Part shown: positions 8,692 through 16,712 of the stretch, piece after piece | Layout: the number at the start of each line of letters is the position of its first letter | How positions within the stretch are numbered: position 1 is the stretch's first letter | Assembly: GCF_044324875.1 (NCBI RefSeq) | Contig: NZ_CP172185.1 | Origin: Escherichia coli | Lineage (GTDB): Bacteria > Pseudomonadota > Gammaproteobacteria > Enterobacterales > Enterobacteriaceae | Strand: one strand, 5' to 3' | Length of the DNA stretch: 64,000 nt | Notes under the pieces: generated by a model | Database searches by the model: none | The model's input: the letters and a program-made list of their open reading frames with translations, nothing else | Told to the model about the DNA's origin: nothing | Made by a program: the position numbers and the translations under genes

Positions 8692-10104
8692 TCCTTTCCT
8701 CGCTTCTTCGTACGCTGCCAGCGTTCGCAGCCTTGCCTCTTTATGATCAACTATCGGTTGCGGATAATCCAGCGTCACACCTGATTTATCTGCCCACTTC
8801 CACGGCTCATGCACCACTTTCCCTGGCACATCGCGCAGTTCCGGTAGCCACTGGCGGATAAACTCGCCTTCGCGGTCAAATTTCTCGCCCTGGGTTGTCG
8901 GGTTAAAAATACGAAAATACGGCGCTGCATCGGTTCCGGTTGAAGCGGCCCACTGCCAGCCACCGTTATTAGCTGCCAAATCACCATCAATCAGCTGCGA
9001 CATGAAATATCGCTCGCCTTCGCGCCAGTCGATCAACAAATCTTTCACCAGAAAACTGGCTGTAATCATCCGTAGCCTGTTATGCATCCAGCCAGTGCTG
9101 TTAAGCTGACGCATGGCAGCATCGACAATCGGGTATCCCGTTTTGCCTTCCTGCCAGGCCTGTAAATGTGCGGGATTGCTCTGCCACTGCACACGATCCG
9201 TCCAGGCAATAAACGGACAATGTTTACACAACGAGGGGTAATACGTCATCAGATGACGGTAGAACTCGCGCCAGATCAGCTCACTAAGCCAGACACTACC
9301 GGCCCCACCGTCCAGCGCCTGCGGCTGTTCCGCCAACAAGCGATGCAAACACTGGCGAGGCGATAACCCGCCCGTTGCCAGGCTGGCGGACAAACGACTG
9401 GTGCCTTCCACTGCCGGAAAATCTCGTTGTTGCTCATATTCTCCGGCACCGTTCTGGCAAAACTGGCGTAATTGCGCAATCGCAGCTTTTTCTTCCACCG
9501 GGAAATGCGCAGTATCGAAAGGCTGACGAGGATAATTCAGCGTAATGGATGGCGCGGGAGCTATCGATCCGCTACTACGTACTTTTGGCGCAGCGACGCA
9601 CTCCGGCATCCCTTCTCGCAGCCGTTTCAGCCAGGCGTTTTTAAATGGCGTAAAAACTTTGTACATCTCATGATTGCCAGTCATCACCGCCCCCGGCGGC
9701 AGGATCACGCTGTCATCAAATCCTTCACACACCACGTTACGCAGCGTTCTCTCAACCTGCACATCCCGCGCCCGCTCATTCACCTCATACTGATAGTTAT
9801 AAAAAAGATGAGTAACGCGGTTTTCCGCGCACACCTGATTAACTGTTTCGACACTGGCGGCAAAGTCATCCACTTCACGGAACAATAAAGGAATACCTTT
9901 TTCTGCCAGTGCTGTTTGTAGCCCGTTCAGTTGCGCATTGATAAATTCAGCCTGACGCGGCGACATATTATGCGCTGCCCACTGGCGCGGTGTGGCTATA
10001 TACAGCGCCAGCACGCGTGCAGACGAATTGCGGCAGGCGGCAGCCAGTGCGAGATTATCGTGCAGACGTAAATCCTGGCGAAACCAGACCAGATGGGTAG
10101 TCAT
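8686..10104 (-). CDS. phr: Deoxyribodipyrimidine photolyase
   Basis: ORF 8686..10143; internal start MTTHLVWFRQDLRL gives 472 aa; FAD-binding photolyase C-terminal domain. Confidence 0.9.
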   Translation of the reverse strand: MTTHLVWFRQDLRLHDNLALAAACRNSSARVLALYIATPRQWAAHNMSPRQAEFINAQLNGLQTALAEKGIPLLFREVDDFAASVETVNQVCAENRVTHLFYNYQYEVNERARDVQVERTLRNVVCEGFDDSVILPPGAVMTGNHEMYKVFTPFKNAWLKRLREGMPECVAAPKVRSSGSIAPAPSITLNYPRQPFDTAHFPVEEKAAIAQLRQFCQNGAGEYEQQRDFPAVEGTSRLSASLATGGLSPRQCLHRLLAEQPQALDGGAGSVWLSELIWREFYRHLMTYYPSLCKHCPFIAWTDRVQWQSNPAHLQAWQEGKTGYPIVDAAMRQLNSTGWMHNRLRMITASFLVKDLLIDWREGERYFMSQLIDGDLAANNGGWQWAASTGTDAAPYFRIFNPTTQGEKFDREGEFIRQWLPELRDVPGKVVHEPWKWADKSGVTLDYPQPIVDHKEARLRTLAAYEEARKGA

Positions 10105-10610
10105 AAAACTCCTGCATGGCGCAAGTGAATAATACGCGGCCAAAGTTCGAAATAACGCTGCCCTGAAAGCCAGGCGTCAGGATAAAGCGCCATATAGTGT
10201 TTGATACGCATCAGCGGCGCAAGAAGCGGTTGCTCGCCACGGCGATAACTGTCGATAAGCGCCGCCAGCTGCTGGCGTTCTGTGGAATCAATATGTGGGC
10301 GAAAATATCCCTGAACGTGCATCAAAACGTTAGTATGATCACGCCGGTTGGCAGGGTGAGAAAGCAAAACAATTACGCGTTGGCGGTACTGGTTGTAATA
10401 GTCATCCAGATTTTGCCACCGGTGAATATCTGCCACGAACGGGCCAAGTTTGCGGTACTCGGGCTGGGAATGGGCCAGAAAGACGAGTTTATAGCGGCTG
10501 TGATAATCGTTGAGTGCCCCGCGCGTTAAGCCATGTTCTTTCAGTCGATGTAACTCGTGGAGAGCGAAGATACGGATTAGGGTGCTTTCATCAAATCGTT
10601 GCTGATTCAT
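10101..10610 (-). CDS. ybgA: DUF1722 protein, upstream partner of phr
   Basis: 169-aa ORF; its stop overlaps the phr start. Confidence 0.8.
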   Translation of the reverse strand: MNQQRFDESTLIRIFALHELHRLKEHGLTRGALNDYHSRYKLVFLAHSQPEYRKLGPFVADIHRWQNLDDYYNQYRQRVIVLLSHPANRRDHTNVLMHVQGYFRPHIDSTERQQLAALIDSYRRGEQPLLAPLMRIKHYMALYPDAWLSGQRYFELWPRIIHLRHAGVL

Positions 10611-10694
10611 TACTGCTCCTGAACGGTTTACAGGAGTAAGTGTAGACGGCAGTATTGAAAAAACGAAACGAATAAATGAGATCGGTAAAGAAAT

Positions 10695-11102
10695 TCAATA
10701 ACTCATAATAAATTTCATGGTGGCGATAAATAGTTTCTTTTCTTCATCACTCATGGTAGAAGCGTTTAACATGTTGCCATAAAATTTACTGATGATATTT
10801 TTTAATTGCAGCAAATGCAAAGGAGAAAAATAGTCACTCCCGATGAGATTACTCAATACCAGCAATAATTCTCCATTATATAAATAACCTACCATAAGAT
10901 TAATCTCTATCATCTCAATTGCTTTTTGTACAGCAAGCGCTGGTAAGATATTCTGACGAAGCATTTTGGCAATATCATTTTCATCCAGTTCATCCGGTGT
11001 TTTATCCAATAAAGAGTTATACCAGTTTATTAAACCACTTTTGAAAGCGAATGAATCATATTGCAGGTGATAAATCTGTTTTAGGGTTTCTTTATTTTTC
11101 AT
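10695..11102 (-). CDS. Hypothetical protein (135 aa) in an AT-rich islet
   Basis: ORF in a very AT-rich stretch; 12 bp downstream of the 94-aa ORF on the same strand; no family recognised. Confidence 0.45.
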   Translation of the reverse strand: MKNKETLKQIYHLQYDSFAFKSGLINWYNSLLDKTPDELDENDIAKMLRQNILPALAVQKAIEMIEINLMVGYLYNGELLLVLSNLIGSDYFSPLHLLQLKNIISKFYGNMLNASTMSDEEKKLFIATMKFIMSY

Positions 11103-11114
11103 TTTATAATGTCT

Positions 11115-11399
11115 TTATTTGCTATGATTTTTCTGATTTAATTCTATATCATTTAAAGCATTTTCAAGCCAATCATCCATGTTCTTAATTTTAGCCCGCT
11201 CATACAAATCATGCACAACATCTTCATAACGCCGTCCATCATTGACCATACAATTAGCTGTATGAGGCAGAACATGTATAAAATCAGACAATATAAAACA
11301 AGCCTTTGCATTTCCAGAGTTAGCTGCAGTTCTGATATCAATCAAGCCTCTGGCAATTAATTTAAGAATAACACTAACATCTTGCATTTTAATTTCCAT
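11115..11399 (-). CDS. Hypothetical protein (94 aa) in an AT-rich islet
   Basis: ORF in the AT-rich islet, co-oriented with its neighbours; no family recognised. Confidence 0.4.
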   Translation of the reverse strand: MEIKMQDVSVILKLIARGLIDIRTAANSGNAKACFILSDFIHVLPHTANCMVNDGRRYEDVVHDLYERAKIKNMDDWLENALNDIELNQKNHSK

Positions 11400-11481
11400 A
11401 TCATCCAGTTAAATTTTAGTCGTAAATCGTCTATCTAAAAAAGATGAAATTAACATTTATAAATTTATTACAATATAAAAA

Positions 11482-11835
11482 TCAAAAATATACATCATCA
11501 GCTTCTACTGAAAACTCCATGGCTCCTAAGGCACCTAAATCAATACTAAATATGGTATCACTTTCCTTAGCACTCCCAACATAGATAAAATAGCCTAAAT
11601 CCCCATCCTGACCTATCAAAAAATAGTCAGGCTCCACTCGTTGAATATCATATGTTTCATTTCTTTCAATAAGATCAGAATAGTTATACAGATATAATAT
11701 TTCATGCTTCTTATTAGTTATTTCATAGGCCTCACTATCTTTAATTTCTTCTATTAAGAAACGTTTATACACTGGAGGAAATTTGATTGACATGTCAAAT
11801 TCAATTTTATTTATATATTCTATGATTTTATTCAT
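11482..11835 (-). CDS. SUKH/SMI1-KNR4-like protein (putative orphan immunity protein, 117 aa)
   Basis: Motifs FPPVYKRFL and DYFLIGQDGDLGYFIYVGS resemble the SMI1/KNR4 (SUKH) immunity family; AT-rich; no toxin gene upstream. Confidence 0.5.
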   Translation of the reverse strand: MNKIIEYINKIEFDMSIKFPPVYKRFLIEEIKDSEAYEITNKKHEILYLYNYSDLIERNETYDIQRVEPDYFLIGQDGDLGYFIYVGSAKESDTIFSIDLGALGAMEFSVEADDVYF

Positions 11836-12069
11836 GTTAAGAATACCTGAGCGGTTAATTATCGGTTATTGTGATGAATATATATTCGCTTTTAATTTTC
11901 AATAACTCATCACGGAAATACATATTGCTTTGTAGGCAAGCGCTAATAATACTTTATGAACCTGACTTCCGCCAGATATTCAACCTAAATATTCATGACG
12001 CAGTAATGTTTTAGAAAGCCACTAACTGCCCAGATAGTGCATCATCTACTACATTGGCGATTATACTCT

Positions 12070-12258
12070 AAATAATTCAAGTTGCAGGAAGGCGACAAGC
12101 GAGTGACAAATTCGTCAGGAACGAATTTGCCCAGTCGCAGGCTGACCTTCGGTGAGAGACATGGATGTCTCTCATTAATCCCCAGGAGCTTACATAAGTA
12201 AGTGACTGGGGTGAACGAACGCAGTCGCAGCACATGCAACTTGAAGTATGACGAGTAT
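12070..12258. repeat. ERIC (enterobacterial repetitive intergenic consensus) element
   Basis: Contains the ERIC core cccaggagcttacataagtaagtgactggggtga and the flanking gcatgcaacttgaagtatgacgagtat. Confidence 0.55.
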
Positions 12259-12302
12259 ATAAAAAACCCCTGATTCCAGTTCCTTGTGCTGCGATCCTAA
12301 CC

Positions 12303-12337
12303 AAAAAAAAACCGCCAGCGTTTCCGCTGGCGGTTTT
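12303..12337 (-). terminator. Rho-independent terminator downstream of ybfA
   Basis: Stem ccgccagcg/cgctggcgg with a 4-nt loop; 9-nt T-run on the minus strand. Confidence 0.7.
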
Positions 12338-12359
12338 CAATGTATTCAGAACTCAGCAA

Positions 12360-12566
12360 TCAGTAAAAATCACCGGTTGCCTTTTCGGCCTGATCCATCC
12401 AAACCGGTTTATCGCTGGTTTTCGACCAGACGCGATGCAGATAGCTGTAAAAGCGGGCGCGGTCTTTCCAGAAAAGCATGAAAGGCAGCGCCAGAACGCC
12501 CACTGCAACCGCATAAGTACGGCGTAAAAAGATAAGCCATGCAGGATATTCTCTGTAGAGTTCCAT
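12360..12566 (-). CDS. ybfA: Small DUF2517 membrane protein
   Basis: 68-aa [17 protein letters not shown]..., divergent from kdpF. Confidence 0.75.
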
Positions 12567-12775
12567 ACTTTTCTCCCCCTTTTGTATCTACCCGGTGAAT
12601 GGCACCGGAAAAATGAATTCGTTTATCTGATGAAAATAGTACCGCCTTTTGTGTAATTTTACTACTCATCCGACCACTTATTTTTGCTTATTGATGGTTT
12701 ATTTACATTCACCGTGTAATTAAGTTACACAAAGGTTAAATTAATACTAAACATTAGTTAAATCATGGCTTTTGC

Positions 12776-12805
12776 CATTTTTATACTTTTTTTACACCCC
12801 GCCCG
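12776..12805 (+). promoter_or_regulatory. KdpE-binding region and promoter of kdpFABC
   Basis: Sequence catttttatactttttttacaccccgcccg upstream of kdpF matches the KdpE operator region as I remember it. Confidence 0.55.
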
Positions 12806-12878
12806 CAGATTTTTGCGAAATCTTTGCAGCCAGAATTCTACCCTTCCGGTATCACTTTTAGGCCACTGGAGGTGCACT

Positions 12879-12968
12879 GTGAGTGCAGGCGTGATAGCCG
12901 GCGTGTTGCTGGTGTTTTTATTACTGGGTTATCTGGTTTATGCCCTGATCAATGCGGAGGCGTTCTGA
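12879..12968 (+). CDS. kdpF: K+-transporting ATPase small subunit F (29 aa)
   Basis: GTG start; peptide [29 protein letters not shown]; stop overlaps the kdpA start (TGATG). Confidence 0.8.
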
Positions 12969-14641
12969 TGGCTGCGCAAGGGTTCTTACTGATCGCCACG
13001 TTTTTACTGGTGTTAATGGTGCTGGCACGTCCTTTAGGCAGCGGGCTGGCGCGGCTGATTAATGACATACCTCTTCCCGGTACAGCGGGCGTTGAACGTA
13101 TACTCTTTCGTTTACCTGGCGTCTCTGACCATGAGATGAACTGGAAGCAGTATCTCTGTGCCATTCTCGGCCTGAACATGCTGGGGCTGGCGGTGCTGTT
13201 TTTTATGTTGCTCGGTCAGCACTATCTGCCGCTTAATCCACAGCAGTTGCCGGGGCTGTCGTGGGATCTGGCGCTGAATACTGCCGTCAGCTTTGTCACC
13301 AATACCAACTGGCAATCTTACAGCGGTGAAACTACGTTGAGCTATTTCAGCCAGATGGCTGGCTTAACGGTGCAAAACTTTCTTTCTGCCGCCAGCGGGA
13401 TTGCGGTGATTTTTGCCCTCATCCGTGCGTTTACCCGCCAGAGCATGAGCACACTCGGGAATGCCTGGGTCGATCTGCTACGCATCACGTTATGGGTGCT
13501 AGTCCCTGTGGCGTTGTTGATCGCACTGTTTTTTATTCAACAAGGTGCGCTGCAAAACTTTCTGCCCTATCAGGCGGTGAATACCGTTGAAGGAGCGAAA
13601 CAGCTGTTACCAATGGGTCCGGTGGCTTCTCAGGAAGCGATCAAGATGCTCGGCACTAACGGCGGTGGCTTCTTTAATGCCAACTCGTCGCATCCGTTTG
13701 AAAACCCAACCGCACTGACCAACTTCGTGCAAATGCTGGCGATCTTCTTGATCCCAACAGCGCTGTGCTTTGCCTTTGGTGAAGTGGCGGGCGATCGTCG
13801 TCAGGGGCGCATGTTGCTGTGGGCGATGTCAGTGATTTTTGTCATCTGCGCAGGCGTGGTGATGTGGGCAGAAGTTCAGGGTAATCCTCATCTGCTGGCG
13901 CTGGGCGCGGACAGCAGCATCAATATGGAAGGTAAAGAGAGCCGTTTCGGCGTGCTGGTCAGTAGCCTGTTTGCGGTCGTGACTACGGCGGCTTCCTGCG
14001 GCGCGGTGATTGCGATGCATGATTCGTTTACCGCCCCCGGTGGCATGGTGCCGATGTGGCTGATGCAAATTGGTGAAGTGGTATTCGGCGGTGTCGGTTC
14101 TGGTCTTTACGGCATGATGCTGTTTGTCCTGCTGGCGGTGTTTATTGCCGGGCTGATGATTGGTCGTACACCGGAATATCTGGGTAAAAAAATCGACGTA
14201 CGCGAGATGAAACTGACCGCACTGGCGATTCTGGTCACCCCGACGCTGGTGCTGATGGGCGCGGCGCTGGCGATGATGACCGACGCCGGACGTAGCGCCA
14301 TGCTCAACCCGGGCCCGCATGGTTTTAGCGAAGTGCTGTACGCCGTGTCATCCGCCGCTAACAACAACGGCAGCGCCTTTGCCGGATTAAGCGCCAACTC
14401 CCCATTCTGGAACTGTTTGCTGGCGTTCTGCATGTTTGTTGGTCGCTTCGGGGTGATTATTCCGGTGATGGCAATTGCTGGTTCGCTGGTGAGTAAAAAG
14501 AGCCAACCCGCCAGCTCCGGCACACTGCCTACGCACGGCCCGCTGTTTGTTGGCCTGTTAATCGGCACCGTGTTGCTGGTTGGCGCACTGACCTTTATCC
14601 CTGCCCTGGCGCTTGGTCCGGTGGCGGAATATCTCTCCTGA
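12968..14641 (+). CDS. kdpA: K+-transporting ATPase subunit A
   Basis: 557 aa from [12 protein letters not shown]...; multi-pass membrane protein. Confidence 0.95.
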
Positions 14642-14663
14642 TGATATTGAGTGAGCACTGAAT

Positions 14664-16712
14664 ATGAGTCGTAAACAACTGGCGCTATTCGAACCAACAC
14701 TTGTCGTTCAGGCGCTGAAAGAAGCGGTGAAAAAATTAAACCCGCAGGCGCAATGGCGCAATCCGGTGATGTTTATCGTCTGGATCGGCAGTCTGCTGAC
14801 CACCTTTATTAGCATCGCAATGGCAAGCGGTGCGATGCCTGGCAATGTGCTGTTTAGCGCGGCAATCAGCGGCTGGCTGTGGGTCACCGTACTGTTCGCT
14901 AATTTCGCCGAGGCGCTGGCAGAAGGCCGCAGTAAAGCGCAGGCCAACAGTCTGAAAGGGGTGAAAAAAACTGCCTTTGCCCGCAAGCTGCGTGAGCCGA
15001 AATATGGCGCTGCGGCGGACAAAGTTCCCGCCGATCAACTGCGTAAAGGCGATATCGTACTGGTAGAAGCTGGCGATATTATCCCCTGCGATGGTGAAGT
15101 CATTGAAGGGGGTGCATCGGTCGATGAAAGCGCCATCACCGGGGAATCGGCACCGGTGATCCGTGAATCCGGCGGCGATTTTGCCTCCGTCACTGGCGGC
15201 ACGCGTATTCTTTCTGACTGGCTGGTGATTGAGTGCAGCGTTAACCCCGGCGAGACATTTCTGGATCGGATGATCGCGATGGTGGAAGGTGCGCAGCGAC
15301 GTAAAACGCCGAACGAGATTGCCCTGACCATCCTGCTGATTGCCCTGACTATCGTCTTTTTACTGGCAACCGCCACGCTGTGGCCGTTTTCCGCGTGGGG
15401 CGGTAATGCAGTCAGTGTAACGGTACTGGTGGCGCTGCTGGTCTGTCTGATCCCAACCACTATTGGCGGCCTGTTGTCAGCGATCGGCGTCGCCGGGATG
15501 AGTCGGATGCTGGGCGCGAATGTGATTGCCACCAGCGGACGTGCAGTTGAAGCGGCAGGTGACGTTGACGTTCTGCTACTGGATAAAACCGGCACCATCA
15601 CACTCGGTAACCGTCAGGCGTCGGAGTTTATCCCCGCGCAGGGCGTGGATGAAAAAATGCTGGCTGACGCCGCACAACTGGCTTCGCTGGCTGATGAAAC
15701 GCCGGAAGGCCGCAGTATTGTGATCCTCGCCAAGCAGCGTTTTAACCTGCGCGAGCGCGATGTGCAGTCGCTCCATGCCACCTTTGTACCGTTTACTGCG
15801 CAAAGCCGGATGAGCGGGATCAACATCGACAACCGCATGATCCGTAAAGGTTCTGTCGATGCCATTCGCCGCCATGTTGAGGCTAATGGTGGTCACTTCC
15901 CAGCCGATGTTGATCAAAAAGTCGATCAGGTTGCGCGTCAGGGAGCCACGCCGCTTGTAGTAGTAGAAGGCTCCCATGTGCTTGGCGTTATTGCGCTGAA
16001 AGATATCGTCAAAGGCGGTATTAAAGAGCGCTTCGCGCAGTTGCGTAAAATGGGCATTAAAACGGTGATGATTACCGGTGATAACCGTCTGACTGCCGCC
16101 GCGATAGCTGCGGAAGCGGGTGTCGATGATTTTCTCGCCGAAGCGACACCGGAGGCCAAGCTGGCATTGATTCGTCAGTATCAGGCGGAAGGCCGTTTGG
16201 TGGCGATGACCGGCGATGGCACCAACGATGCTCCGGCGCTGGCGCAGGCAGATGTCGCGGTGGCGATGAACTCTGGTACTCAGGCGGCGAAAGAAGCGGG
16301 CAATATGGTGGATCTCGACTCTAACCCGACCAAGTTGATCGAGGTGGTGCATATTGGCAAACAGATGCTGATGACCCGTGGCTCGCTGACCACCTTCAGC
16401 ATTGCCAACGATGTGGCGAAATACTTCGCCATTATTCCGGCGGCGTTCGCGGCAACGTATCCGCAGTTAAATGCGCTGAACATCATGCGCCTGCATTCGC
16501 CCGACTCCGCCATTCTCAGTGCGGTCATTTTCAACGCCTTGATTATCGTCTTTTTGATTCCCCTGGCGTTAAAAGGCGTGAGTTATAAACCGTTTACCGC
16601 TTCTGCCATGTTGCGCCGTAACTTATGGATTTACGGTCTGGGTGGGCTGCTGGTGCCGTTTATTGGTATCAAAGTCATTGATTTACTGCTGACCGTTTGC
16701 GGTCTGGTGTGA
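14664..16712 (+). CDS. kdpB: K+-transporting P-type ATPase subunit B
   Basis: 682 aa; P-type ATPase motifs DKTGT and GDGTND present. Confidence 0.95.

Follow-up and report, generated by a model that had tools for sequence, protein, structure and literature searches.

The 64-kb stretch of Escherichia coli DNA analyzed here (referred to below as the window) raises the question of why a chromosome would carry an immunity gene of the polymorphic-toxin type with no toxin beside it, and what such a gene might still do. The gene is an intact 117-amino-acid (aa) open reading frame (ORF) on the minus strand (11482-11835) that runs from ATG to stop, and a preliminary description had read it as an orphan SUKH/SMI1-KNR4-like immunity gene. 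RefSeq lists the product as WP_001033414.1, "hypothetical protein," and its naming is inconsistent, with the 117-aa protein carrying that name in most genomes and the name "SMI1/KNR4 family protein" going to near-identical forms, namely, single-base variants, a 2%-different variant with a 9-bp insertion, and truncated variants. These flips between near-identical variants indicate that the protein sits close to the annotation threshold. By our own calculation, about 0.2 ORFs of 117-aa length would arise by chance in a 1.66-kb islet at ∼30% GC, and ORF length by itself is not decisive for whether the gene is real. What persuades us that it is real is its set of 40 homologues, which reach down to 43% identity and span two phyla, together with a dN/dS of 0.05 to 0.14 in every comparison.

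The family assignment in the preliminary description drew on SUKH-type motifs in the product, and both motifs are present in the ORF (KFPPVYKRFLIEE and DYFLIGQDGDLGYFIYVGS). By itself, the 117-aa protein matches the Pfam SMI1_KNR4 profile (PF09346) with an i-E value of 2.3e-4 and 22.2 bits, residues 6-95 aligning to positions 5-103 of the 125-position model, a score that we judge borderline; matches to SUKH_5 and SUKH_6 were weaker, and an NCBIfam scan of the three proteins encoded in the islet gave zero matches. The homologue search found the 40 relatives in Escherichia, Cronobacter, Serratia, Photorhabdus, Xenorhabdus, and Mangrovibacter as well as in the Bacteroidota genera Tenacibaculum and Zobellia, and 27 of them were taken into a family alignment. 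The PF09346/SUKH profile search, which had been proposed as a check, came out in favor of the assignment, with 21 of the 27 aligned members matching at E ≤ 1e-3 (best, 1e-9). A profile built from the family matched the SMI1/KNR4 structure 3d5p in the PDB at an E value of 1.5e-10, with no other credible match, and an AlphaFold2 model from the same alignment (pLDDT 89.9, pTM 0.85) had as its top Foldseek matches in the PDB 3d5p (E 1.6e-6, TM 0.70), Bacillus subtilis YobK (2prv), 2icg, and 2pag, with Knr4 (8aj2) further down. With both a profile match and the alpha+beta fold found, we consider membership of the SUKH superfamily to be established, as judged from sequence and predicted fold. The superfamily has members that are not immunity proteins. 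The occurrence of Knr4 among the fold matches is in keeping with a housekeeping or regulatory role for the SUKH fold that has no link to toxins, as in yeast Knr4/Smi1 or E. coli Syd, and the strong purifying selection described below would fit any cellular role.

The neighborhoods of the relatives bear directly on that alternative. The preliminary description had also pointed to homologues lying downstream of polymorphic toxins in other genomes as a check on its reading, and such an arrangement is what we observed: outside E. coli and E. fergusonii, a Tox-SHH domain or a remnant of one ends 22 to 40 bp upstream of the SUKH relative in 13 of the 15 loci examined. The relatives linked to a toxin or a remnant are 45 to 70% identical to the window protein and belong to Cronobacter, E. 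marmotae, Photorhabdus, Serratia, and Tenacibaculum. In loci with an intact toxin gene, Tox-SHH forms the C terminus of a T6SS-linked Rhs protein. In two Cronobacter loci (L007/L009), which encode a 70% identical protein, the SUKH gene starts 21 bp past the stop codon of a 1,534-aa PAAR-Rhs-Tox-SHH gene that is itself preceded by VgrG and a DcrB-family gene, and the same VgrG/DcrB-family/PAAR-Rhs-Tox-SHH architecture is found in four E. marmotae loci (L010-L013; 69% identical protein), where the Rhs C terminus matches Pfam Tox-SHH over the full model length (E 6.2e-36). In Photorhabdus (L017/L018), an Rhs-Tox-SHH gene likewise lies directly upstream of the SUKH relative. Remnants account for the other linked loci: a Tox-SHH fragment of 95 to 99 aa lies upstream in Serratia fonticola (L014-L016), within an orphan array behind a PAAR-Rhs gene, and in Tenacibaculum (L019-L021) a 37-residue remnant of the Tox-SHH C terminus (E 2e-10) ends 39 bp before the SUKH relative.

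The two exceptions among the 15 loci are both from Cronobacter and encode an identical SUKH protein, there an orphan behind an Rhs gene with a different tip. This one protein (P0007) is thus found in two settings, as a cognate behind Rhs-Tox-SHH (L007/L009) and as an orphan (L006/L008), and in the latter the other Rhs tip has its own 206-aa downstream gene and ∼59 bp of the Tox-SHH 3′ end is left. The comparison looks like replacement of a toxin tip that left the old immunity gene behind. As a separate observation on these neighborhoods, SymE-family toxin genes (PF08845) lie downstream of the SUKH relative on the opposite strand in Serratia (L014-L016, 6425-6999), at a distance of 62 bp, and in Photorhabdus (L018, 1653-1973), ∼0.7 kb away past one small ORF; a further SymE-family copy is located inside the Serratia orphan array.

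The position of Tox-SHH next to the relatives identifies the cognate toxin class of the lineage to which the window gene belongs, and on the evidence of these gene neighborhoods that class is Tox-SHH (HNH/EndoVII, His-Me finger DNase). A table in Zhang et al. 2012 (PMC3482391) had already paired Imm-SUKH with Tox-SHH, and Tox-SHH effectors are DNases neutralized by an adjacent immunity protein, as in the blocking of effector V2c by V3c (PMC10902643); we found no solved Tox-SHH structure. The window protein shares its fold and sequence family with the Imm-SUKH proteins of polymorphic toxin systems (SUKH-1/SMI1_KNR4, PF09346; Zhang et al. 2011/2012; 3d5p, YobK 2prv), and its relatives share the published partner class, HNH/EndoVII families including Tox-SHH (PMC3482391). 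It resembles them also in being small and predicted to be cytoplasmic and, as far as its relatives are concerned, in being encoded directly after the toxin, but it differs in its borderline Pfam score, in its length at the short end of the range (relatives, 115 to 127 aa), and in having no toxin gene adjacent to its own. A subfamily tied to Tox-SHH in two phyla is not what a housekeeping or regulatory SUKH protein would lead one to expect, nor are the presence of the gene in only 3% of E. coli genomes and its location in a low-GC accessory islet with a CDI immunity gene alongside, and we regard a role with no toxin link as very improbable.

A toxin gene immediately upstream on the same strand, present in the relatives, is absent for the window gene, which for lack of an adjacent toxin is an orphan. 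The absence of a toxin tip had been noted in the preliminary description, as had a non-coding upstream region with an ERIC repeat beyond it, and each of these statements holds. The 226-bp AT-rich leader of the SUKH gene (11836-12061, minus strand) is non-coding, with stop codons in all three frames; it contains no minus-strand ORF of ≥40 aa, the nearest one beginning within the ERIC-type repeat (12062-12259), and a weak Shine-Dalgarno-like AGG (11846-11848) lies ahead of the SUKH gene. When five Tox-SHH C termini were compared by tblastn with the 865 bp upstream of the gene, only noise was returned (E ≥ 0.08); blastn with a word size of 7 for a decayed toxin upstream also stayed at noise level, and Smith-Waterman alignment of a 230-bp leader with toxin 3′ ends did not rise above shuffles. 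A likeness of the leader triplets GAT AAT TAA to the last codons of the toxin, seen in a MAFFT alignment, was not above chance and was dropped. The DNA of the Cronobacter locus is homologous to the window from only 13 bp ahead of the SUKH ATG. In comparison with the SUKH genes of E. marmotae and Cronobacter (P0008 and P0007; proteins 69 to 70% identical to that of the window), which share homology from 13 bp upstream of the ATG onward, the window is without the whole VgrG/DcrB-family/PAAR-Rhs-Tox-SHH operon and has its gene at a different chromosomal site, between ybfA and ybgA. Unlike Serratia, Tenacibaculum, and Cronobacter L006, the window retains no fragment of an Rhs core or of a toxin C terminus, and its full 64 kb contains no Rhs-sized gene, the longest ORF being kdpD at 905 aa. 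The window SUKH gene is without a cognate toxin in cis, and the toxin-free layout is common to all 170 genomes that carry the islet.

In E. coli, several rhs loci and T6SS islands are often present in a single strain. The cognate could in principle be detached, with the gene for a Tox-SHH-type toxin at another place on the genome and the SUKH gene guarding against self or kin intoxication, and the multiplicity of such loci (PMC7216683), together with the fact that the window covers only 64 kb of the genome, would leave room for it. However, when Tox-SHH DNA of four lineages (E. marmotae, Cronobacter, Photorhabdus, and Serratia) was compared by blastn with 5,426 complete E. coli genomes, the 170 islet carriers among them, no toxin match was found at the DNA level of this survey, whose floor lies at ∼65 to 70% identity and which a divergent Tox-SHH could escape; only the SUKH gene and the conserved end of the Rhs core were matched. 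In addition, every toxin-linked relative has its pair adjacent, 22 to 40 bp apart. We consider a detached cognate decidedly unlikely. Two further searches concerned the wider occurrence of the toxin: a homologue search with the Tox-SHH domain gave short fragment proteins only and no full Rhs protein, and is uninformative about E. coli, and tblastn of the toxin against plasmids returned only Bacillus LXG toxins and matches in Paraburkholderia, Burkholderia, and Bernardetia, with no enterobacterial plasmid among them.

The setting of the gene is a variable islet of 1,657 bp (10649-12305, minus strand) that lies in a stretch of ∼30% GC within a backbone of ∼53% GC. Homology to the K-12 backbone stops at window position 10648 and resumes at 12306, which places the islet between ybgA and the terminator of ybfA, with dtpD, phrB, and ybgA flanking it on one side and ybfA and kdpFABC on the other; these neighbors mark the region as part of the E. 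coli chromosome. On the minus strand, the order is ERIC-type repeat, 226-bp leader, SUKH gene, a 94-aa ORF (11115-11399), and a CdiI_3-family CDI immunity gene (10695-11102), the SUKH gene being the first of the three genes. In K-12, the same site is occupied by the 9.6-kb rhsC element (rhsC-ybfB-ybfO-ybfC-ybfQ-ybfL-ybfD), in the same orientation. The islet has the insertion site and orientation of that element in common with it, but has no sequence similarity to it and no Rhs core, C-terminal toxin fragment, or H-repeat. An attempt to count K-12-type rhsC occupancy with the 188-bp rhsC leader was abandoned, as this leader is repeated at other rhs loci (median of 2 places per genome) and is not locus specific. 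A terminator-like hairpin after ybfA (12307-12338, minus strand; a 14-bp stem followed by a T run) marks the upstream boundary of the islet and is predicted to separate it from ybfA transcription. The dispersed repeat next to the leader is a 198-bp element (no strand assigned) with 25-nucleotide terminal inverted arms at 12062-12086 and 12235-12259; copies of it are found in 5,425 of the 5,426 complete E. coli genomes, with a median of 6 places per genome, and it is presumably an ERIC/IRU repeat.

The CdiI_3-family gene is a second orphan immunity gene in the islet. Its 135-aa product (WP_000790734.1) matches Pfam PF18616 (5.9e-17) and PDB 5j5v chain C, "Immunity protein CdiI" (E 1.7e-5), in agreement with the RefSeq product name. 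The islet thereby resembles the toxin-free arrays of immunity genes known as AID clusters in Bacteroidales (bioRxiv 10.1101/471110) and SAIDI-1 in S. Typhi (PMC7400221): with SUKH and CdiI_3 it forms an immunity array without a toxin, it shares with SAIDI-1 a mixed origin in T6SS/Rhs-type and CDI-type systems, and in all of these cases cognate toxins are not detected in the carrier species, which for the present islet refers to the DNA-level Tox-SHH survey. It is, however, much smaller (three genes, 1.66 kb) and shows no sign of carriage on a mobile element, with no integrase or transposase gene in the ORF list or the RefSeq annotation.

Megablast recovered the locus at 100% identity in many complete E. 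coli genomes, and overall the islet is present in 170 of the 5,426 (∼3%), with all three of its genes co-occurring in these same 170 genomes. Two types can be distinguished, the window type in 156 genomes and a second type, ∼93% identical to it, in 14. The second type also occurs, again with no toxin, on contigs of a cluster named E. fergusonii by NCBI. Its leader is ∼91% identical to that of the window type; it is without the ERIC insertion, and it has an extra 810 bp (L024, 9686-10495) with ORFs of 46 and 155 aa, the longer of which has no Pfam match. We note that window positions 12066-12304 are missing from the second type (L024); only the window-type islet has received the ERIC-type repeat as an insertion, which separates its SUKH leader from the ybfA terminator.

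The existence of two orphan alleles allowed the SUKH gene to be compared with its flanks, and this comparison bears on the proposal that the gene is a functionless relic, an ORF left to drift once the toxin of an ancestral Rhs toxin/immunity module had disappeared from the rhsC hot spot. The window and second-type alleles differ by 13 synonymous and 3 to 4 nonsynonymous changes, giving a dS of 0.23, a dN of 0.011 to 0.014, and a dN/dS of 0.05 to 0.06 (binomial P of 3e-7 against neutrality), and the gene is as constrained as the neighboring housekeeping gene ybgA, for which the same comparison gave a dN/dS of 0.085 at a dS of 0.21. A dN/dS of ∼0.05 between orphan alleles places the SUKH gene under purifying selection, and the substitution pattern indicates that it evolved as a protein-coding gene while toxin-less, diverging in step with its flanks. 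The equality of its dS with that of flanking ybgA further suggests vertical descent, or co-transfer with the flanks, over recent mobile acquisition. At least 169 of the 170 carrier genomes also have the ORF intact, as judged over the whole length of the match. A relic would account for the absence of a toxin in cis and of a recognizable promoter in the leader, for the weak constraint on the middle ORF of the islet (dN/dS of 0.47 between the two islet types; that of the CdiI_3 gene is 0.23), and for the independent IS1, IS5, and IS630 insertions that are seen inside the islet in some E. coli genomes (H1/H2, L005, H118-H120). One of these, the IS5 of strain WP7-S17-ESBL-01, truncates the SUKH gene at its 3′ end, and loss of the gene is thus tolerated there. 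Set against a level of constraint equal to that of ybgA and against near-universal integrity of the ORF, these points leave a drifting relic unlikely in our judgment.

Each of the three alternatives, relic, detached cognate, and non-immunity SUKH protein, is less likely than the reading we prefer. We consider it probable that the gene encodes a cytoplasmic SUKH immunity protein, the partner of a Tox-SHH lineage whose toxin has been lost, and that it serves from a toxin-free islet as a shield against foreign Tox-SHH. The starting points of this reading are the family, the fold, the linkage to a toxin class, the absence of a toxin in cis, the chromosomal site, and the constraint. The toxin would have disappeared from this E. 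coli lineage, leaving the antidote alone at the ybfA-ybgA site, and the steps that the reading adds concern binding, neutralization, specificity, expression, and ecological benefit. We hypothesize that the antidote, if expressed, would bind the His-Me-finger DNase domain (Tox-SHH) of Rhs effectors entering the cell, that cleavage of DNA by the bound DNase would be blocked, and that a carrier cell could then survive contact with attackers whose weapon it does not make. Besides the DNA-level scope of the toxin survey, the borderline Pfam score with its shifting RefSeq names, and the IS insertions noted above, two further points weigh against this proposal. The nearest toxin-linked relatives are ∼70% identical, immunity is usually highly specific, and the protein may neutralize none of the toxins circulating at present; and the leader, as scanned, is without a promoter-like site on the SUKH strand, the whole scanned region being no richer in such sites than shuffles. 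E. coli often silences its AT-rich islets.

For comparable orphan immunity islets, protection has been either documented or proposed (bioRxiv 10.1101/471110, PMC10539506, PMC7400221). Prior work had already established the SUKH family and its pairing with Tox-SHH, as well as orphan immunity genes and islets, and the gain here is incremental. Relative to the preliminary description, the analysis contributes the cognate toxin class, the rhsC site, the three-gene islet, and the signature of purifying selection. Specific to this case is the occupation of the rhsC hot spot by an immunity islet without a toxin, found in a minority of E. coli and in E. fergusonii, with a SUKH gene under purifying selection whose cognate class was undetected in E. 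coli by the DNA-level survey. The case also illustrates that a toxin-free antidote gene can be matched to a toxin class through comparative context alone, and it singles out a candidate factor by which a defined 3% of E. coli genomes might resist the T6SS of other species. Should the protection prove real, the E. coli lineages that withstand Tox-SHH-armed neighbors in the gut or the environment would be predictable from their carriage of the islet, and an immunity-only alternative to an armed rhsC would be documented at the same hot spot.

The backbone beside the islet differs between its two sides. The ybgA-phr flank (8693-10648) is 94.0% identical to K-12 and the kdp side (ybfA-kdpA, 12306-14700) is 97.1% identical, and in the ybgA-phr flank the window type, K-12, and the second-type strain EC42405 are about equally distant from one another (93 to 94%). 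By sequence comparison, this flank is a deep haplotype split among genomes labeled E. coli, located beside the rhsC hot spot. A more far-reaching version of our reading, which we advance tentatively and regard as possible but doubtful, is that at the rhsC hot spot the islet constitutes an old, toxin-free, immunity-only allele passed down with the chromosome, shared by E. fergusonii and a minority of E. coli, and maintained by selection as a shield against the Tox-SHH Rhs toxins and the CDI toxins of enterobacteria such as E. marmotae and Cronobacter, toxins that E. coli itself apparently does not carry. If this were true, the islet would represent a long-lived, defense-only haplotype alternative to the attack strategy of an armed rhsC, and the deep divergence of ybgA-phr would be a footprint of their coexistence.

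The middle gene of the islet appears close to neutral or weakly constrained, as judged from its substitutions. The 94-aa ORF (minus strand; 90 or 94 aa long in RefSeq) has no Pfam, NCBIfam, or PDB sequence match, and its AlphaFold2 model, a five-helix bundle with a pLDDT of 93.9, has no PDB fold match. The ORF has 59 remote relatives, either 80 to 110 aa long or tandem forms of 170 to 185 aa, one of them annotated in a Desulfobacterales genome; a further match of 1,800 aa (P0087) is a repetitive protein and was set aside as probably spurious. The contexts of the remote relatives are short contigs or uninformative arrays of small ORFs, and one relative overlaps the stop codon of a CPCC-motif ORF by 4 bp.
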